DNA from: Thermoactinomycetaceae bacterium
Lineage (GTDB): Bacteria; Bacillota; Bacilli; Thermoactinomycetales; Thermoactinomycetaceae
Length of the DNA stretch: 64,000 nucleotides
Assembly (NCBI GenBank): GCA_025449975.1
Contig: JANWIG010000034.1
Span: 31,452 to 95,451 of the forward strand
Direction: 5' to 3'
Part shown: positions 16,860 through 43,590 of the stretch, piece by piece
How the letters are laid out: every line of letters starts with the position of its first letter
Position numbering within the stretch: position 1 is the stretch's first letter
The notes under the pieces: generated by a model
What the model was told of the DNA's origin: nothing
Databases searched by the model: none
Seen by the model: only the letters and a program-made list of their open reading frames with translations
Made by a program: the position numbers and the translations under genes

Positions 16860-18815
16860 CTATAATGTTTCTGCTTTCTTCAGTCCCTCCTGAAACATTT
16901 TATTATTTGGATCTAGGAAAGTAATCTTACGAAAGACAGAAATGGCATCGGGTTTCTTCTTCAATGCTAGATATGTAAGTCCTAGTTGATAAAGATAATC
17001 GGTATTTTGTGAATCCAGACGAACGGCAGTAAGCGCCGCTTCGTTGGCCAATTCTGTTTCATTTAGGTAATAAAGGGCTTGTGACTGATAATGCCACGCT
17101 TCGGGTAACTTCTGGTTTTGCTTCGTTACTCCCTCCAAGACCTCTCTCGCCTTGATCGCCCAATGATCGAGCAATTCCTGTTTGTCTTCCCCTTTGGTTG
17201 TTTGATCTTTGGCAATTTCCTCTCTTTTCATTAAATAAAGTGCCCCCAATGTAATCTGAAAGTGAGGCTCTCCTTGATCATACTTAACTGCCATCCGTGC
17301 ATAATCGATGCCATCATCCAGCCGATCCAGGTGAGTCAAAAAAACAGCCAAATCATGATAATAGAGGGCTTGATCTTGATGCATATAAATTGCATAAGTT
17401 AAAATATTTACAGCTTTGGTATATTGCTTTAATGCAGCATAGATTTTTGCTTGATGATATAGATAACGAGGATCCTTATTATCAAGTTCCACTGCTTTTT
17501 CACTTGCTTTCTGCGCGGTCGCATAATCTTTTGCATAATATGCATGAACAGCTAGTGCATCAAAAATCCCTGCGTCTTGCGGGAACTTTTTACTTGCAGC
17601 CGTTAAGGTGAGCATACCCGATTTGTAATCTTTTGCTTCACCGTATAGATTGGCCAAATGAAGATAGTATTCTGCTTGATCCAAATCAGCGCTAAGCGCC
17701 TTTCTAGCCAAAATCGTTGATCCTTTTAGATCTTTTCGTTCCCAAGCTTTGACCGATTCTTGATACCAAGCAGCAGCTTGCTCTTTGTCATGCGAAATAT
17801 CAGAGTAGACAATGTTTTCCAAAGAATGGTCTGCCACTGTGACCGAATGTATTTTGATAATCGAAAAAATAAATGCAACTACGCACAAACTACTTACCAA
17901 AAGAAAAATCAACGGCTTGGGAATCGACTTTTTTGGCTTTTTCAACTTTTTTCGAACTACTTTTTTCTTACTTGGTGTGATTTTGTCAGACCATGTTTTC
18001 TTTTTCGTTTTTTGTACAATGTGCAAAGGCTGGATGAGATCAGATGAAATAAATGGACCAGAAGAATTTAGAGCAAAAATCGGTTTTTCATCCGCATATT
18101 CATAGGCTACTTTCCATAGCTCATGAATCCTCGGTCTTTTCAAACGGTTTGTCGCTTGTGTTCTTCCAAAGATCATTTTCAAATTGGGTGGAAGATCTTT
18201 TTCGATCTTCTGTAAAACCTGGGGATCATCCCAACGATTGAGTTCATACTTGTTCGATAACATCATATAAAAGAGCTGTCCCGCTTGGCGGACATCTTCG
18301 CGCTCATCATGTCCTTTTCGCGCATCTTCTGTGGCATGATGCGGGAGTAATCCATTCGGGCCACCATATAAAAATTTTACTTTTCCTTGGGGTGTAATAA
18401 TAATGTTATGGGAATCAACCAAGGCAAACTCACCTTGATCATAACATTTCATCAAATGACTGGTCACCATTTTCATAATATGAGCTGCTTCTCCTATTTT
18501 AAGAGGCGCAGCTTCGAGGAGATACATTTCCAACAGATGTCCTTCAATCTTCTCATACAGTTGATAGACTACTCCATCTTGGATGAAAACGTTAGCAATC
18601 GGATAAAAAATTTCTTCATTGCGGGACATTAGACTTTCTTTGATCTCCTCGTTGGAGTTATGTTGTAGCTTTACGGCATGAACCAAGCGTATGGAAGGAG
18701 ACATGGAAAAGTCTGCGGGATTTTTAACCAAATAAAATACACCATAGATAAAGGGAAAAACTTGTACTACCTTATATTTCTCACAGATCACGTCACCTTT
18801 CCTCTTAATCTCCAC
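16860..18815 (-). CDS. Membrane protein: N-terminal kinase-like (predicted pseudokinase) domain, one TM helix, C-terminal multi-TPR domain
   Basis: Kinase-fold landmarks are degenerate (FALVDSHNII in place of HRDxKPxN, KFLYGG in place of DFG). Lys-rich juxtamembrane stretch, TM helix LIFLLVSSLCVVAFIFSII, then about 8 TPR-like repeats. Confidence 0.7.
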   Translation of the reverse strand: MEIKRKGDVICEKYKVVQVFPFIYGVFYLVKNPADFSMSPSIRLVHAVKLQHNSNEEIKESLMSRNEEIFYPIANVFIQDGVVYQLYEKIEGHLLEMYLLEAAPLKIGEAAHIMKMVTSHLMKCYDQGEFALVDSHNIIITPQGKVKFLYGGPNGLLPHHATEDARKGHDEREDVRQAGQLFYMMLSNKYELNRWDDPQVLQKIEKDLPPNLKMIFGRTQATNRLKRPRIHELWKVAYEYADEKPIFALNSSGPFISSDLIQPLHIVQKTKKKTWSDKITPSKKKVVRKKLKKPKKSIPKPLIFLLVSSLCVVAFIFSIIKIHSVTVADHSLENIVYSDISHDKEQAAAWYQESVKAWERKDLKGSTILARKALSADLDQAEYYLHLANLYGEAKDYKSGMLTLTAASKKFPQDAGIFDALAVHAYYAKDYATAQKASEKAVELDNKDPRYLYHQAKIYAALKQYTKAVNILTYAIYMHQDQALYYHDLAVFLTHLDRLDDGIDYARMAVKYDQGEPHFQITLGALYLMKREEIAKDQTTKGEDKQELLDHWAIKAREVLEGVTKQNQKLPEAWHYQSQALYYLNETELANEAALTAVRLDSQNTDYLYQLGLTYLALKKKPDAISVFRKITFLDPNNKMFQEGLKKAETL

Positions 18816-18841
18816 CTTCCACCCTCCCTTTCTTCCTACCG

Positions 18842-19579
18842 CTAGCTCATCAATTGGCCCAATACCATATGCATTTCTTCGATACTTGGTCTCTCATTGG
18901 TATCAAAAGAAATTGCTTTTGAAATCAAATCAACGAGCGCTGGTGGACAATCTGGTACGTAATCAGTCACTTTAGGCGTTTGTAATCCACTCATCATCGG
19001 ATTGTTACCAGTGATCATCCAATACATCCGAACCCCCATCGTATAGGCATCGGAGGAGTTAATCATTTTAAGAATCGATTCCTCATCCCTTTTTCCCACA
19101 CTATATCCTCTTGGAAAAGCATGAATCGAACCACCATACATAAAGTAAATATCTCGCTGAGGCGTTACAAAAATATTCTGCGGGTGAAGCAACGCAAACT
19201 GCTTCTCGTTATATAATTGAAGTAGGTTATCCATAATCCCATACGAAACCCAGACCATGTCAGAAATGCGAAGTGGAACCGACTTCATCAATTGATAAGC
19301 CAATAGACTCCCTTCAATCTTTTCAAATACTTGATACAAAATACCATCTTCAATAAATACTTCTTTTATTGGACAGAAAATTCTTTCATGTCTTTCGTAT
19401 AGCAGCTCTTCTTTCAGTTGGTTGCGGAAGGTATGAACATCCATCGCATGAATATAGCGTGTAATCGTAAATCCATCTTGTTCTTCATCTGTATAATAAA
19501 GAATCCCGTTAACAAATGGGTACGAACTGATCACTCGGTACTGATCCCTGATTCTTTCATTTAGTCCTTTTGCTTCCAT
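18842..19579 (-). CDS. Soluble kinase-like protein (predicted pseudokinase), paralog of the N-terminal domain of the next gene
   Basis: Shares IF.PI..VFI.DG..YQ..EKIEG.LL and FAL....NI..TPQ....F.YGG with ORF 16860-18815. FALLHPQNIF replaces HRDxKPxN and there is no GxGxxG. Confidence 0.7.
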   Translation of the reverse strand: MEAKGLNERIRDQYRVISSYPFVNGILYYTDEEQDGFTITRYIHAMDVHTFRNQLKEELLYERHERIFCPIKEVFIEDGILYQVFEKIEGSLLAYQLMKSVPLRISDMVWVSYGIMDNLLQLYNEKQFALLHPQNIFVTPQRDIYFMYGGSIHAFPRGYSVGKRDEESILKMINSSDAYTMGVRMYWMITGNNPMMSGLQTPKVTDYVPDCPPALVDLISKAISFDTNERPSIEEMHMVLGQLMS

Positions 19580-22362: not shown

Positions 22363-22800
22363 TTAAAACCATTTTCCGTTCATCAAATATGTATTATAAC
22401 GGGTTCCTTGCTCAAAACCATCATCAAGATTCTTCTCTCTTTGCTCTAAAAAGTCCTTTATTTGGTGAATTTTAATAATTCGGCTCTCCAGCTTTGGATC
22501 AAACCACCTATTCTGTAATGTTCGCATCCCTCTTTTCTGTTTTAACACTTCAAGATCATGATCGGAAAATCGATTGATTTTCTCTTTTAATAACCGATGA
22601 GTATCTTCGACCCAAGTTTCCTGATAATGTAACTTTGATCTAGACATGGGACACAACAGGATCAAACTCAGGCAGATCAACATGGGTAGGATCCATCTTC
22701 TATTCGCCAAACACTCTCCGTTACGAAAAACGTATAAAAAATCATAAAAATATCTATCTTCCTCCAATTTTACTGAATCCCGTCTCGTCAATCTTACCAA
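22363..22800 (-). CDS. Hypothetical protein with one hydrophobic segment
   Basis: ORF only; the longest form starts at TTG. Hydrophobic stretch ILPMLICLSLILLC, then a charged helical region. No family recognised. Confidence 0.4.
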   Translation of the reverse strand: MVRLTRRDSVKLEEDRYFYDFLYVFRNGECLANRRWILPMLICLSLILLCPMSRSKLHYQETWVEDTHRLLKEKINRFSDHDLEVLKQKRGMRTLQNRWFDPKLESRIIKIHQIKDFLEQREKNLDDGFEQGTRYNTYLMNGKWF

Positions 22801-23040: not shown

Positions 23041-23080
23041 ATAAATGAAATAAATGGTAGACAGTCTTTCACTGTCTACC
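23041..23080 (-). terminator. Rho-independent terminator overlapping the J-like gene stop codon
   Basis: GGTAGACAG, 7 nt loop, CTGTCTACC, followed on the minus strand by ATTTATTTCATTT. Confidence 0.65.
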
Positions 23081-24419
23081 ATCCGCTTCTCTTTTTCAAA
23101 TAATTGAGGTAAAAATTGCGAACAAGCACAATGGGAACAACGATCACCCATATATAAAACATGAGGAGAAAGAAGACAGTCATCAAGAAAAAGCTCCCTA
23201 CTTTTCCGATCCGATTCCGTAACCACTCATATAAAAATGCAAAGTCCGATCGAAAACTCTTCCCTTGAGCCACTTTCTGAAAAATCCGCCAGACAGGACT
23301 ATATGCTGAGATAATATAAAGAATAGGATAAAGAAATAATGCAATGTAATTACTTAAAAGCGCAAAGTCCAAATGTACTGCTTGTGCATACTCGTTAGAA
23401 AGAGCCAAAATATTTAAAAGAATCAACAATGGAATCAGTGCTACCCAAACCCAACTGCCGGTAAACTTTCGTTTTTGTAACCATTTTATATTATCCAGTG
23501 CTGCATCGATTTTCGTTTGTAAAACGGGATCCGAAAAGGAATAGATCTTCGCCTGATGCAAAAGTGATTCTGACGTCTTAATATTTATATGGGAATGAAT
23601 CGGATAAATACCAGCCGGAAGGAAAGAATTTCCTGTGGAAATGGATGTCCAATCTTGAGTTGCAAACTTAAAGTAAGTACTCCCTAATTGCCGATTGACG
23701 ACTGGATCATTTGGGGCTGATTGCCGACATCTGTTCAAGTAGTCAATCGCTTTTTGCAGTTGGCCCATTTCGCTATATAAGACACCTAATTTATAAACAG
23801 CAGACAAATCTTGGTAATCCATTTCAAGCGCTTGAATATATGCGCGCTCTGCCTGATTCAAATTTTTTAGATTATAGTGTACATCTCCCAAAAAAGTATA
23901 ATAAGCAGGCTGAGGCTCTAACTCACAAGCTCGATGGATGGCGCCAATCGCTTCTTTTACTTCATTGTTTTGATAACGTGCTTGCCCCAATAAAGCCCAT
24001 GCTTCAGCATAATTAGGTACTTGATCAATCAGCCTTTGAGCTAATAACAGCGCATCTACCGTTCTTCCTTGCTTTAAAAGCTCCCAGCCATTTCCTATTT
24101 CCTGTTGGATTTCGGATAAATCGATCTCTGATTGTGATATATCATTAGAACTTGTAGAAGCATCATCGACAGAGTTTGCAGTCAGACTCAACGTATAATC
24201 TTTTAATGATTGATCGTATTCCCGCCTCCGCTCTGGATCTAACAAAGTCGTTTCCACTTGCTCTAACAGCCGTACCATCCGCTCAGCTTCTTGTCGCTTC
24301 TCAAATGAAGGGGAGTTAGTACGTTGGGTCCATTTGCGTAGTTCTCCATAGAGGATCCGGCGAATTTCTTCGTCTGAGGCCATTGAGGAAACATTTAACA
24401 GTTCATAATAGTTCTGCAT
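23076..24419 (-). CDS. J-like domain (no HPD), TPR repeats and a C-terminal multi-TM membrane anchor
   Basis: N-terminus NYYELLNVSSMASDEEIRR...LLDPERRREYD follows the J-domain helix pattern, but TQR occupies the HPD position. TPR-like repeats at about aa 110-250; 3-4 TM helices at the C-terminus. Confidence 0.75.
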   Translation of the reverse strand: MQNYYELLNVSSMASDEEIRRILYGELRKWTQRTNSPSFEKRQEAERMVRLLEQVETTLLDPERRREYDQSLKDYTLSLTANSVDDASTSSNDISQSEIDLSEIQQEIGNGWELLKQGRTVDALLLAQRLIDQVPNYAEAWALLGQARYQNNEVKEAIGAIHRACELEPQPAYYTFLGDVHYNLKNLNQAERAYIQALEMDYQDLSAVYKLGVLYSEMGQLQKAIDYLNRCRQSAPNDPVVNRQLGSTYFKFATQDWTSISTGNSFLPAGIYPIHSHINIKTSESLLHQAKIYSFSDPVLQTKIDAALDNIKWLQKRKFTGSWVWVALIPLLILLNILALSNEYAQAVHLDFALLSNYIALFLYPILYIISAYSPVWRIFQKVAQGKSFRSDFAFLYEWLRNRIGKVGSFFLMTVFFLLMFYIWVIVVPIVLVRNFYLNYLKKRSGW

Positions 24420-24442
24420 ATTGTCAACGTTCCTTCTCTTTT

Positions 24443-25966
24443 TTAACTAATGACTAACTTACCAACCCGTTCTTGTTTTTGTTTTACCTCTTCCTCGGTT
24501 AAATTGGATTTACGATCAATATCTAACTCACCCAAGCGTTTACGTGCGGTTAAGTCGTATACAGATACATGGATAATTCCATCCCGATCATACTCAAAGA
24601 TCACTTCAAGAGGAGCGCCTTTCGGATATGGAGGAACTTTAATGAGAGCCTCACCCACTACCTTGACATAATCCTTATGTGTGTCTTCCCCTTCTGTTAC
24701 TTTGACATGCAGTTCTGTCTGATTATCGACGGCTGTCGAGAAATAACCACTCGCCCGTGCAGGAATAACTGTATCTTTTTTGAGAATGATCGAGTTCACA
24801 TCGACTCCATCCTCATTTAAAGCTAACACACCCAAACTATGTGAATTAACGTCCTCTACATTGATATCTGGGAAGAATGGCGGAACATCCGAACCCGTTC
24901 TACCTTGCTTTTTGTAGATCAACATACCTTGGATCGCTGCTCCCATCGCAACAACTTCATCTGGATTCACATCCAAAGAAGGAGTCAAACCAGTGACACG
25001 TTGAATCATCTCTGGAACGGATTTCATCCGTGTGGATCCACCCACCAACAGGACACGGTCGATATCGCTCCATTGCAATCCTGCATCTTCTAAGACGAAT
25101 TGCATAATGGTTTGGGTTTGACGTAGCAAATGAGCAGTAATCTCTTCAAATTTCTGTCTGGTCAAGGTAACCCGACCATTTACCCCATTGGCCGACAAGA
25201 AGACTTGCGTGCTGTCCAGCCGTGAAATGTTTTTCTTGGCAATCTCTGCTTTATCTCGCAAATCTTGTTCCAGAACGGCATCATCGAGTAGATCAATTCC
25301 GCCCATTTTCTTAAACTCGTCATTTAGATAGTTCATAATACAGTTATCCCAATCAAAACCACCTAAGTTTTTAGAGCCACCGGTCGAAAGTACCCGCAGA
25401 CCATCTGGATTGAGCCTCATAATTGTTACATCAAAGGTACCTCCTCCGAGATCATAAACTAAGATCGTTTGCTGCAGATGCATTTTGTCCAATCCATAAG
25501 CCAATGCAGCCGCAGTCGGTTCGTTGATAATTCGAAGTACATTCAATCCTGCAATCCGTCCAGCATCTTGTGTCGCTTTACGCTGAGCATCGTCAAAATA
25601 AGCTGGAACGGTAATCACTGCATCGGTGATCGGCTCTCCTAACAATGTTTCGGCATCCTCTTTCAATCTTCGTAAAATCATGGCCGAAATTTCTTCAGGG
25701 GTATAAACTTCATTCTGCTCTGTGCGAAACTTCCAATTTTTATCACCAAGCTGTCGTTTTACAAACTGGACCACATTCAGCGGGTTAGCAACTGCCGAAC
25801 GTTTGGCGATGCTACCGACGATCGGACCAGAATGATCAAATAAAACAACAGATGGGGTAATTCTTTCGCCATCACGGTTGATCAATATTTCCGGTCTCCC
25901 GTACTTATTCACAACCGCCAAAGCAGAAAAGGTTGTACCTAAGTCAATCCCCACGACTCTTCCCAT
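24443..25966 (-). CDS. Hsp70-family ATPase, short form lacking most of the alpha-helical lid
   Basis: GIDLGTTFS, TVPAYFDDAQRKATQDAG, IINEPTAAALAYG, DLGGGTFDV and LVGGSTRM motifs, plus a beta substrate-binding domain. Only 507 aa, whereas I recall about 610 aa for DnaK. Confidence 0.9.
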   Translation of the reverse strand: MGRVVGIDLGTTFSALAVVNKYGRPEILINRDGERITPSVVLFDHSGPIVGSIAKRSAVANPLNVVQFVKRQLGDKNWKFRTEQNEVYTPEEISAMILRRLKEDAETLLGEPITDAVITVPAYFDDAQRKATQDAGRIAGLNVLRIINEPTAAALAYGLDKMHLQQTILVYDLGGGTFDVTIMRLNPDGLRVLSTGGSKNLGGFDWDNCIMNYLNDEFKKMGGIDLLDDAVLEQDLRDKAEIAKKNISRLDSTQVFLSANGVNGRVTLTRQKFEEITAHLLRQTQTIMQFVLEDAGLQWSDIDRVLLVGGSTRMKSVPEMIQRVTGLTPSLDVNPDEVVAMGAAIQGMLIYKKQGRTGSDVPPFFPDINVEDVNSHSLGVLALNEDGVDVNSIILKKDTVIPARASGYFSTAVDNQTELHVKVTEGEDTHKDYVKVVGEALIKVPPYPKGAPLEVIFEYDRDGIIHVSVYDLTARKRLGELDIDRKSNLTEEEVKQKQERVGKLVIS

Positions 25967-26136
25967 TTCTTTTTCACGCTCCTTTGACAGAAAGTAACAT
26001 CAAATCAAATAAGCCATTCTCCACTGTTTCCATACGTTAATATAATAACCCTTTGGGATGGTCTGAAGGAAGACCATGAAAACCACCAAATGAAAAACAA
26101 CTCCCAACGATAAACTCATTGGGATGTTTTCCGAGC

Positions 26137-26751
26137 TTAGGGTTTATATTTTTTTATGACTACTTCTTCTGGGCGCAATAGAACATCTTTATATTTGAAC
26201 CCATGGCGTACTACTTCTACTACATAGTTATCCTCTTGAGGATTGGATGTTTGAACCACTCCGATGACTTGCTGTTTGCTCGGATCAAAGATTGGAGATG
26301 GGCAAACAATCAGCTCCACACTCCTACGATATAAAATTTCGATCAACTCATGACTTAATGACTCTAGCAAGTTGGTGATCTCAGGTGAAGCAGATCCATT
26401 GTTGACTTTTTCTTTATAAATATTATTCATCCGATCAATAAGCAGAATTAAGTCAATATACAGGGGACGAAGTTGATTCAGTTCCCGATCTTGTTTTAGT
26501 TCGTCCATTTCTTGATACAGCCGTTCAAAAGCCGCTTCTTTAGTCTTGTCATTTTTTAATCGTGATTCAAACAAACGCACTAAAGAGTTAAAGTTCGATT
26601 GCAGTTGTGACAAAAAAGAGAGAACTTGCTTCTCTTGTAAAGGTTCATTCCTTCTATGCATATCTTCCCTAGACATCCGAAATCTCATCCGTCTAGATTC
26701 TTGTGGAACGAGGTGGCCAGTAATTTCGTTTCTCCCTTTGTTGGGATCCAT
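26137..26751 (-). CDS. GrpE-like nucleotide exchange factor (divergent)
   Basis: Coiled-coil N-terminal half. C-terminus ...SPIFDPSKQQVIGVVQT...VVEVVRHGFKYKDVLLRPEEVVI matches the GrpE beta-domain pattern (FDP..H.A / G(Y/F)...R.LRPA.V.V). GGGAGGAA RBS. Confidence 0.7.
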   Translation of the reverse strand: MDPNKGRNEITGHLVPQESRRMRFRMSREDMHRRNEPLQEKQVLSFLSQLQSNFNSLVRLFESRLKNDKTKEAAFERLYQEMDELKQDRELNQLRPLYIDLILLIDRMNNIYKEKVNNGSASPEITNLLESLSHELIEILYRRSVELIVCPSPIFDPSKQQVIGVVQTSNPQEDNYVVEVVRHGFKYKDVLLRPEEVVIKKYKP

Positions 26752-27451
26752 AGCTGTTCCTCCCTATTACTAGTTTACAACTCTCATCTCCAGAATCCTA
26801 GTATAGTAGAAGTATTTCTAAAAATTACTTCAATATTAAGCATTGTTTAAAAAAACGTCTGTTTATTCCCTCTTTTTCTCATACTTCCTTTAGTTTTAAT
26901 TTCGAAGCGGATGATATAGTTATTGGTCATTATAATTCGTTTCCAATAAATAAACAAGTAATTGGAACACAATGGGGACCGTAGAGTACTTTAATTGACC
27001 AACTTCAGACTTTCCATGCTCGATGAACATATTTGCATTCATCAAAATTATAACTCCATTATCTATTTGCTATTATTTTATCATTTACAATGGGATGAGA
27101 ATATCTTTTTTAACAAAGTTTATTTTACACTATCTGATGACATCTTTAAAAGAAAGCGTTTTCTCCAGCTATTCGAACCTCACATTTTACAACTATGTAA
27201 GTGAAACCACTTTATCTGTCATAAATCACTAAAGAAATACCCGATTTCCCCAAAAAGTATGCATCATATTTTTGGTAATTTAGCCTCATTAAACCCATTT
27301 ACTTCTATCTTTCTGAAAAACTGAAATAATTAACATACTAAAATACATGGTAATAATTACATTTTTAACATTTTAATTCATTAATAGCAATAAAAAAGCC
27401 TATTTTTTAATAGAGATGCACTTCTATCCTAAAGAAATGCATCTCAGCAAC

Positions 27452-30950: not shown

Positions 30951-31794
30951 TGCCTGTACTCCCCTCAGGTAGAGGTCCATACAACATGGCATCCATCATC
31001 TTACAGACACGAACCATCTCTCTTACATCATGGACACGCATGATCTGGCAGCCTTTAACGATTCCCAAAGCGACAGTGGCAGCAGTTCCTTCTAGCCGTT
31101 CTTCAGGAGGTAAGTTTAATGTTTTCCCAATCAATGATTTCCGTGAAGTCCCTAATAATACAGGATAACCTAACTCTACAATTTTCTCTAGACTCCGCAT
31201 CACTTCTAAGTTTTGTTCATAGGTCTTCCCAAAACCGATCCCTGGATCTAAGATGATATTCTCTTTTCTAACACCCGATTTACGCATTTGCTCGACAGAA
31301 AACAGCAGATCTGTCTGGATCTCTTCGATTAGGGAATCGTATTGGGGAATTTCTCGATTATGCATCAGCACAATCGGCACATCAAACTCCGCAGCAACAC
31401 GCGCCATATCGGGATCTTTCCGACCACCCCAAATATCATTGATGAGATGAGCACCCGCTTGAATCGCTTGTTTCGCTACTTCCGCTTTATAAGTGTCAAT
31501 GGAAATCGGCAAGTCTACTTCTTGGGCAATCCGTTCAATAACCGGAATAACTCGCTCTAATTCTTCTTCCAACTGAACCGGTTGATAATTGGGTCGTGTC
31601 GACTCTCCACCAATATCGAGCAGATCCGCGCCATCCGCTTTCAATTGATATGCTCTCTCCAGCGCTTTTTCAACCGTATTGTATTTTCCACCATCGGAAA
31701 ATGAATCAGGAGTAACATTGATAATTCCCATTACCCATGTTTTTTTTCTTAATGGAAAACGATATTTTCCGATTGTCAACACCTGCTGATTCAT
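30943..31794 (-). CDS. folP: Dihydropteroate synthase
   Basis: MGIINVTPDSFSDGG...DIGGESTRP...INDIWGG Pterin_bind motifs. Confidence 0.95.
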   Translation of the reverse strand: MNQQVLTIGKYRFPLRKKTWVMGIINVTPDSFSDGGKYNTVEKALERAYQLKADGADLLDIGGESTRPNYQPVQLEEELERVIPVIERIAQEVDLPISIDTYKAEVAKQAIQAGAHLINDIWGGRKDPDMARVAAEFDVPIVLMHNREIPQYDSLIEEIQTDLLFSVEQMRKSGVRKENIILDPGIGFGKTYEQNLEVMRSLEKIVELGYPVLLGTSRKSLIGKTLNLPPEERLEGTAATVALGIVKGCQIMRVHDVREMVRVCKMMDAMLYGPLPEGSTGNG

Positions 31795-43432: not shown

Positions 43433-43509
43433 TGGTAGCGGTGGAGGGGCTCGAACCCCCGACCTCACGGGTATGAACCGTACGCTCTAGCCAGCTGAGC
43501 TACACCGCC
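43433..43509 (-). tRNA. tRNA-Met (elongator, anticodon CAT), CCA encoded
   Basis: Reverse complement GGCGGTGTAGCTCAGCTGGCTAGAGCGTACGGTTCATACCCGTGAGGTCGGGGGTTCGAGCCCCTCCACCGCTACCA folds as a cloverleaf. It closely matches my recollection of B. subtilis elongator tRNA-Met. Confidence 0.92.
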
Positions 43510-43514
43510 AAAAT

Positions 43515-43590
<76 letters not shown>

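Follow-up and report, generated by a model that had tools for sequence, protein, structure and literature searches.

The question raised by a 64,000-nucleotide stretch of contig JANWIG010000034.1 from a Thermoactinomycetaceae bacterium (positions 31,452 to 95,451; hereafter, the window) is whether three adjacent genes on its minus strand are the remnant of a housekeeping chaperone operon or a second Hsp70 system with a task of its own. The genes encode a GrpE-like protein, an Hsp70 of 507 amino acids (aa) and a protein, here called the adaptor, in which a J-like domain, a tetratricopeptide repeat (TPR) array and a transmembrane (TM) anchor are combined. An original prediction, made before any database search, had taken them for a specialized set. 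Our analysis of this triad suggests that it is probably a dedicated accessory Hsp70 machine, tethered to the membrane and specific for its client, which would act alongside the housekeeping DnaK system.

Architecture of the three proteins

The 507-aa protein matches the Hsp70 profile PF00012 with an E value of 1.7e-144 (482.7 bits), and the match ends at profile position 511 of 599. The motifs that define the superfamily are all kept (GIDLGTT, K70, NEPTAA, DLGGGTFD and GGSTRM), and the catalytic motifs of the nucleotide-binding domain (NBD) are retained throughout the 117 family members that were compared. In the AlphaFold2 (AF2) model (pLDDT 91, pTM 0.88), the NBD is docked to the beta part of the substrate-binding domain (SBD-beta), followed by a single helix (491 to 503); since the chain ends after this helix A, the lid is absent. 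The same helix corresponds to a C-terminal tail that, when the family members are right-justified, reads [RK]-Φ-[AGS]-K-Φ-A-[IV]-[SNG]. The closest solved structure is that of a Firmicute DnaK (2V7Y, 3.7e-121), and the NBD presents the deletion of the Gram-positive type. The IIB loop is six residues shorter than that of Escherichia coli DnaK.

The peptide-binding beta-sandwich is largely intact: F426, A429 and Q433 of the pocket are kept, and the two replacements, V436 by Leu and I438 by Val, are conservative. Loop L1,2 of the SBD-beta bears an insertion. The interdomain linker, which reads VLLLDVTPLS in DnaK, is changed to I-N-V-E-DVNSHS, where DVNSHS is a signature of the family. With regard to the nucleotide cleft, the Hsp70 review literature reports that residues of the K55/R56/E264/E267 type close the cleft in DnaK and make it dependent on a nucleotide exchange factor (NEF). 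The equivalents of K55, R56 and E267 are kept, and that of E264 is an Asp. The DnaK-type residues slowing nucleotide release are thus preserved, in line with the retention by this Hsp70 of a GrpE-type exchange factor of its own.

The putative exchange factor matches the Pfam GrpE family (PF01025) over profile positions 17 to 165 of 165, with an E value of 8e-16 and a score of 58.6 bits, above the threshold of 25.8. Furthermore, it aligns with the GrpE chain of G. kaustophilus (4ANI_A, 3.7e-7), including the C-terminal FDP...LRP.. pattern. Its scores lie far below every NCBIfam GrpE equivalog cut-off, the best being 43 bits against 176, and since it passes the Pfam threshold and misses all those of the housekeeping equivalogs, we consider it a GrpE paralog.

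In the adaptor, residues 3 to 69 match the Pfam DnaJ family (PF00226) weakly, with 29.3 bits, yet above the cut-off of 27.8. The four helices of the J fold are recovered in the AF2 model (4 to 8, 16 to 33, 39 to 59 and 62 to 87, with pLDDT from 79 to 91), and the domain matches solved J domains (DNAJB8 at 1.1e-5). The HPD tripeptide, however, is missing: the loop reads T-N-S-P-S, with S-P-S at the HPD position, and it is for this reason that we call the domain J-like. The loss is not peculiar to the window, since the motif R-T-N-[SA]-P-x occupies this position in all nine adaptor orthologs, and the adaptor shows no H-P-D in any alignment, those with DnaJ and DNAJB8 included. In related cassettes of other bacteria (described below), proteins with the same helix-III signature carry H-P-N, H-P-D or H-P-E at the aligned position, so that the change in the triad amounts to the replacement of His by Ser or Ala and of Asp by Ser, Gln or His, with the Pro retained. 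In every ortholog compared, no other part of the adaptor is conserved as well as the J-like domain (41 to 71% identity in the more distant ones and 93% in the nearest, L006), which argues for a retained contact with Hsp70 and not for decay.

Downstream of the J-like domain, several Pfam TPR families match at about residues 110 to 250, and the array is modeled by AF2 with a pLDDT of about 90. In the more distant orthologs, its identity is 24 to 55%, and it evolves there faster than the J-like domain. Three hydrophobic segments follow, at about residues 322 to 343, 352 to 372 and 408 to 436; the whole AF2 model is helical except for one beta-hairpin. A Foldseek search with the adaptor returned only generic TPR proteins, and nothing for the post-TPR and TM parts. 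An EEVD-style clamping of the Hsp70 C terminus by the TPR array was considered and is not supported, the tail being helix A in the model and no clamp-like Lys, Asn or Arg being invariant in the repeats.

The architecture read in the original prediction thus holds for all three proteins, namely, a divergent GrpE-like protein with a C-terminal FDP...LRP pattern, an Hsp70 with intact nucleotide-binding motifs that lacks most of its lid and an HPD-less J-like protein with TPRs and three to four TM helices, for which three hydrophobic segments were found.

Class of the Hsp70 and conservation of the triad

The original prediction had also set the triad apart from the housekeeping hrcA-grpE-dnaK-dnaJ operon and had left the class of the Hsp70 to phylogeny. 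In agreement with the former statement, no HrcA gene lies near the triad, the window contains no CIRCE element, even with three mismatches allowed, and a tblastn analysis of the window found no DnaJ-type protein and no second Hsp70. Moreover, the Hsp70 scores below the NCBIfam equivalog cut-offs for DnaK (498 versus 648 for NF001413 and 493 versus 822 for TIGR02350). The assignment to HscA fails as well (369 versus 708.6 for TIGR01991, 36% identity to E. coli HscA and no isc genes nearby), and so does that to HscC, with 34% identity to the E. coli protein, no NCBIfam HscC model among its matches and a GrpE paralog encoded alongside.

In a HMMER scan of 1.84 billion representatives, the nearest clusters were mainly of 495 to 540 aa, with canonical DnaKs of 596 to 647 aa interspersed by score. 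The phylogeny was reconstructed by neighbor joining, with HscC as the outgroup and 100 bootstrap replicates on 50 taxa. The canonical DnaKs, including that of E. coli, form a clade of their own, HscA and HscC fall outside and the Hsp70 of the window is placed deep among short Hsp70s. All short Hsp70s are excluded from canonical DnaK in 99 of 100 replicates, the short Hsp70s exclude DnaK, HscA and HscC in 78, and the 507-aa family is monophyletic with its "Hsp70B" relatives (see below) in 85. These comparisons indicate that the protein is a DnaK-derived member of a separate clade of short Hsp70s, outside DnaK, HscA and HscC.

Full-length relatives of the adaptor are few, and all of them come from Thermoactinomycetaceae or from Bacillota contigs. 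The order GrpE-Hsp70-adaptor after lysS is found in Thermoflavimicrobium dichotomicum, in T. daqui and in the complete genome of Staphylospora marina, and it recurs in a close, fully syntenic relative from a metagenome as well as in a contig that has ctsR-mcsAB-clpC after the triad. In a BLAST survey of the loci that were fetched, a short Hsp70 gene lies directly upstream of every adaptor ortholog with readable upstream DNA, and a GrpE gene is part of the cluster wherever the fetched sequence was sufficient. A lack of co-conservation, which the original prediction had named as one of its refutations, is therefore not what we observe: the three genes occur together in every relative examined.

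The orthologs of the Hsp70 have an invariant length of 507 aa and 72 to 86% identity in at least eight named genera of Thermoactinomycetaceae, and the GrpE-like family has the same spread across the family; a contig scan with query-specific Hsp70 peptides gave matches in two Thermoflavimicrobium genomes only. Compared with T. dichotomicum and S. marina, respectively, the identities are 85 and 73% for the Hsp70, 85 and 78% for LysS, 86 and 59% for the GrpE paralog and 52 and 32% for the adaptor. The Hsp70 is conserved to the same degree as LysS, the adaptor is fast evolving and the GrpE paralog is intermediate.

Layout of the locus and its signals

The triad lies immediately downstream of lysS, within the gene order pabA-folP-folB-folK-dusB-lysS … ctsR-mcsA-mcsB-clpC, which is the usual origin-proximal region in Bacillales. 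The three open reading frames (ORFs) of the original prediction are all present on the minus strand of the window (Table 1), the stop of hsp70 does lie 23 nucleotides (nt) from the start of the J-like gene and the terminator described at the J-like stop codon was recovered as a hairpin. The 23-nt gap contains a GAAGGA ribosome-binding site, and a strong one, GGGAGG, lies ahead of the grpE-like gene.

Table 1. Coordinates in the window of the triad genes, of the adaptor domains and of the associated signals
Feature	Position	Strand	Basis
GrpE-like gene, 204 aa	26137-26751	(-)	ORF list and Pfam GrpE
Lid-less short Hsp70 gene, 507 aa (NBD, linker, SBD-beta, one helix)	24443-25966	(-)	PF00012, AF2
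J-like/TPR/TM adaptor gene, 447 aa	23076-24419	(-)	Pfam DnaJ and TPR, hydropathy
J-like domain, aa 1-75	24195-24419	(-)	Pfam DnaJ, AF2
TPR array, aa 101-253, about 5 repeats and capping helix	23661-24119	(-)	Several Pfam TPR families, AF2
C-terminal membrane anchor: three hydrophobic segments and conserved basic loop (PILYIISAYSP...)	23079-23459	(-)	Hydropathy, alignment, AF2 (low confidence)
Intrinsic terminator: 14-bp hairpin with U-rich tail, overlapping the J-like stop codon	23052-23084	(-)	-24.2 kcal/mol, z = -8.2
Hairpin and U-run between grpE-like gene and hsp70	26102-26124	(-)	-15.5 kcal/mol, z = -4.9
45-nt block 5' of grpE-like gene, with imperfect palindrome GAAGTAATTT-N4-AAATACTTC	26794-26838	(-)	Comparison across relatives

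With no CIRCE in the window, control by HrcA is not predicted. Two further signals suggest that the genes may have a dedicated regulator and that the grpE-like gene may be to some extent uncoupled from those of the Hsp70 and the adaptor. The hairpin between grpE-like and hsp70, whose sequence is kept in L006, T. dichotomicum and T. daqui, is possibly a partial terminator or an attenuator. The 45-nt block upstream of the grpE-like gene is near-identical in the window and in the same three relatives, with one substitution in the window copy, and the intergenic DNA on its flanks diverges; it is a candidate promoter or operator. Since its RNA fold is not significant, the block is more likely a DNA site. 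As a promoter of the sigma-A, sigma-H or sporulation type it was rejected, because no spacing fitted.

The block falls within a gap of about 700 nt between lysS and the grpE-like gene (26752-27451), which is AT rich and contains no credible ORF and no Rfam match; in the whole window, the Rfam scan recognized only two adjacent tRNAs (43436-43590, minus strand). The neighbors of the triad in the window are lysS, a small ORF, a deacetylase, a transporter of the MFS type and pseudokinases. The small ORF (22363-22800, minus strand), downstream of the triad, has a conserved part of about 100 aa, which possibly begins at an internal Met and has a hydrophobic N terminus. It matches no known family; L001, L006 and L011 have weak homologs of it in the same downstream position. 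The kinase-like ORFs (16860-19579, minus strand) are adjacent and encode 245 aa and 651 aa; in the larger product, a kinase-like N terminus is combined with TPRs and a TM segment. On visual inspection, both have a degenerate catalytic loop and DFG site (HPQN, VDSHN and no DFG Asp), so that they are probably pseudokinases, and they are found again close to the triad in L006, L011 and L003. In other genomes, the triad is followed by Tad-pilus genes (two genera) or by genes for a deacetylase, an MFS protein and pseudokinases. In particular, a Tad/Flp-pilus-like cluster, consisting of a CpaE-like ATPase, a prepilin peptidase, T2SSE and two T2SSF proteins, comes directly after the triad in T. dichotomicum (L001 11535-17012) and S. 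marina (L010 13219-18924) and is not present in the window.

Related cassettes, known systems and the proposed function of the triad

Further relatives were collected with a second adaptor alignment (A2), the first (A1) being too divergent for pattern scanning; A2 was used to scan metagenomes, and the loci were then annotated. The triad is the minimal form of what was found. In seven independent contigs (L004, L009, L016, L019, L022, L023 and L031), an extended cassette comprises GrpE, Hsp70A (about 515 to 530 aa), Hsp70B (about 507 aa), a J/TPR/TM protein and a zinc-ribbon/TM (ZnR-TM) protein, followed by an ATPase that is FtsK/HerA-like and has about 1000 aa and by a last gene that varies among the loci. 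In some cases, the ZnR-TM protein is a fusion with a further HPD-less J-like domain, and the last gene encodes an HExxH protein in L023 and two other, unrelated types of conserved C terminus elsewhere. In L023, a gene for a TPR-CHAT protease lies upstream of the cassette, and a four-gene form without the ATPase was found in a contig from a spore former. The Rhodococcus pseudokoreensis plasmid NZ_CP070617.1 (L038, 69175-77339) carries an Hsp70 of 510 aa, a J(HPN)/TPR/TM protein of 369 aa, a GrpE of 173 aa and an FtsK/SpoIIIE protein of 930 aa, beside Tn7-like tnsA, DDE transposase, tniB and tniQ genes. Furthermore, in the metagenome contigs L024 to L030, some of them apparently from the human gut, the layout is Hsp70 (520 aa), J (HPN), Hsp70 (516 aa), J/TPR (HPD or HPE) and GrpE (256 aa), with J domains that keep His-Pro.

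None of the additional components was found in the window or in the flanks of 8 to 10 kb of the Thermoactinomycetaceae loci. In PADLOC-DB v2, the three triad proteins had no match, and the cassette ATPase gave only generic HerA and mad8 matches; in the IMG/VR viral contigs, the module is absent and only unrelated J domains occur. The public annotations of the triad genes are generic ("Hsp70 family protein," "nucleotide exchange factor GrpE" and "tetratricopeptide repeat protein"), and in the literature that we searched the cassette is not described beyond Kaur et al. 2020 (PMC7159879). From the gene neighborhoods, the triad appears to be the vertically inherited minimal form of a wider module family, maintained by the Thermoactinomycetaceae at the lysS–ctsR locus.

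Several known systems share part of this organization. The review literature recognizes DnaK, HscA and HscC as the prokaryotic Hsp70s and argues that the specialized ones dispense with exchange factors. In E. coli, HscC is encoded next to the membrane-anchored J partners DjlB and DjlC, whose HPD is altered to HPE, and it shares with the Hsp70 of the window the L1,2 insertion of the SBD-beta as well as a presumed role at the membrane. However, HscC belongs to another clade, keeps a shortened lid, does not have the GrpE signature and is independent of a NEF, whereas DjlB and DjlC have no TPR array and are tail-anchored through one helix. In the mitochondrial import motor, mtHsp70 and its GrpE-type NEF Mge1 are held at the membrane by anchored J proteins, among which Pam16 is J-like and HPD-less. 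The resemblance is a functional analogy only, with no homology beyond the shared domain families; different from the triad, mtHsp70 has a lid and Pam16 pairs with the HPD-bearing Pam18, and the triad is without a known translocon partner. J-TPR co-chaperones, such as the cyanobacterial Sll1384 and the eukaryotic DNAJC3 and DNAJC7, combine a J domain with a TPR module that binds clients or partners, but they are soluble proteins that retain the HPD, and their genes are not accompanied by those of an Hsp70 and a NEF of their own.

An accessory pair is also present in Myxococcus xanthus, under the adjacent locus tags MXAN_6671, which is SglK, and MXAN_6672, the GrpE homolog GrpS. The former, MxDnaK2, is an accessory DnaK paralog with an adjacently numbered second NEF, and its substrate set is non-overlapping and differently enriched in membrane proteins (PMC11019930). 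In contrast to the Hsp70 of the window, MxDnaK2 has a lid and is a full-length DnaK of the PRK00290 type, its J-domain proteins bear the HPD and no J/TPR/TM adaptor is found in the operon. The original prediction had considered the combination of the three parts unusual; this stands with respect to the literature but not with respect to sequence space, in which the family is widespread. For a dedicated GrpE paralog, M. xanthus offers an earlier example. The closest description in print is one theme of the GAP1-N2 double-GTPase conflict systems, in which HSP70 and GrpE, with or without a truncated HSP70, occur with DnaJ- or TPR-fused proteins in multicellular Firmicutes and Actinobacteria, with a membrane-proximal role (PMC7159879). 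Different from that theme, the triad is without DO-GTPase, GAP1 and FNIII components, and the large cassettes carry instead an FtsK/HerA-like ATPase, which is not linked to HSP70 in that study. The genes for DO-GTPase, GAP1 and FNIII proteins are absent among the neighbors in the window and in the flanks of 8 to 10 kb of the relatives, the absence of GAP1, for which the libraries used hold no public hidden Markov model, being judged from the lack of unassigned large ORFs.

The architecture of the three proteins allows a working cycle to be proposed, and it suggests that the triad would act at the membrane on specific clients. The three C-terminal TM helices of the adaptor would hold the assembly at the membrane, on the cytoplasmic side, its J-like domain may dock the Hsp70 and its TPR array may pick and present the client or clients, so that the adaptor would carry Hsp70-ATP to a membrane-proximal client. 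Hydrolysis could be triggered by the client alone, by an HPD-bearing DnaJ of the host or, in a non-canonical manner, by a co-evolved contact of the S-P-S loop. Being lid-less, the Hsp70 might bind and release rapidly or grip bulky segments, and the GrpE paralog would reset its ATPase.

A number of points weigh against this proposal of a dedicated accessory machine. The canonical stimulation of the ATPase is not to be expected without the His and Asp of the HPD, and the VLLL part of the linker, which DnaK needs for allostery, is only half kept (I-N-V-E), so that the cycle of the Hsp70 may differ or the protein may be a switch or a holdase. A contact between the TPR array and the Hsp70 tail is unsupported by the alignment of the array, in which no Lys, Asn or Arg resembling those of a carboxylate clamp is invariant. 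Within the Thermoactinomycetaceae loci examined, no neighboring gene is consistently linked to the triad. The housekeeping DnaK alongside it, which would lie beyond the window, is deduced from the genome note of a relative, and the larger relatives of the module resemble conflict systems.

This last point leads to another explanation, which the original prediction had not considered and which sees in the triad a part, reduced or domesticated, of an anti-phage or toxin-deploying conflict system, where an FtsK/HerA-like ATPase and variable effectors are under the control of short Hsp70s, GrpE and J/TPR/TM adaptors; the triad would still serve in defense or sensing, possibly with partners encoded elsewhere. 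In its favor, the extended cassettes do carry such an ATPase and a last gene that varies among loci (HExxH in one), the TPR-CHAT protease gene lies upstream in L023, the Rhodococcus module resides on a plasmid beside Tn7-like genes and the TPR part of the adaptor is fast evolving. The Thermoactinomycetaceae are filamentous spore formers, and the filamentous habit fits the theme of multicellular bacteria. The association of HSP70, GrpE and DnaJ/TPR proteins with the conflict systems of such bacteria is also documented (PMC7159879). However, in the Thermoactinomycetaceae the triad occupies one fixed chromosomal site among housekeeping genes, its Hsp70 is conserved like LysS and unlike patchy defense genes, homologs of the ATPase and of the effectors are lacking within 8 to 10 kb and in the window, and neither PADLOC nor the viral contigs of IMG/VR returned the triad or the module, respectively. 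The fixed site, the LysS-like conservation and the lack of genes for the ATPase and the effectors speak for domestication in this family. The fast-evolving TPRs and the mobile relatives of the module leave the conflict explanation some weight, but we regard it as unlikely.

Two further explanations carry still less weight. That the triad is the only dnaK/grpE of the organism, and hence a degenerate housekeeping operon, could be suggested by the Firmicute DnaK found as the nearest solved structure and by the Gram-positive-type deletion in the NBD, but the genome note of a Thermoactinomyces (T. daqus) counts two DnaK, two GrpE and one DnaJ (PMC4290991), as a canonical operon together with this pair would give. 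Together with the missing HrcA, CIRCE and DnaJ, the DnaK cut-offs that are not reached and the separate clade, with the two short Hsp70s that stand side by side in one cassette in other bacteria and with the near universality of dnaK (98.9% of bacteria; PMC11019930), this makes such an origin very unlikely. Nor is the triad at all likely to belong to the HscC/DjlB/DjlC system or to the HSP70 theme of the GAP1-N2 systems. The membrane-anchored J partners and the L1,2 insertion are shared with HscC, and HSP70, GrpE and DnaJ/TPR proteins are listed for GAP1-N2 neighborhoods (PMC7159879), but HscC shares only 34% identity, falls outside the clade and needs no GrpE, no GTPase, GAP1 or FNIII protein is found among the neighbors and the adaptor is all-helical apart from its one beta-hairpin.

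Beyond the accessory machine proposed for the Thermoactinomycetaceae, it is possible to hypothesize, tentatively and with more doubt than confidence, that the triad is the core of an undescribed Hsp70-powered, membrane-associated system of Gram-positive bacteria, and that the Thermoactinomycetaceae have domesticated this chaperone core for a cellular task. In its full form, this system would consist of one or more short lid-less Hsp70s with a GrpE dedicated to them, J/TPR/TM adaptors that are HPD-less or HPN, the ZnR-TM protein, variable effector-like proteins and a pump of the FtsK/HerA type, which would be gated or fed by chaperone cycling in the service of defense or toxin export. If so, the S-P-S J-like domain would represent a non-canonical coupling between a J fold and Hsp70.

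With its own GrpE paralog, the triad contradicts the generalization that specialized bacterial Hsp70s shed the exchange factor. The locus belongs to a large and diverse radiation of lid-less Hsp70s of about 500 to 540 aa outside DnaK, HscA and HscC, essentially unstudied, whose members keep a private GrpE and pair with HPD-less J-fold adaptors under strong constraint. In the sister cassettes, the FtsK/HerA-type ATPases and the variable end proteins point to an unexplored chaperone-driven system of conflict or export. The triad itself offers a natural test case for the role of the lid, for the action of a J fold on Hsp70 without the HPD and for the targeting of Hsp70 to bacterial membranes.

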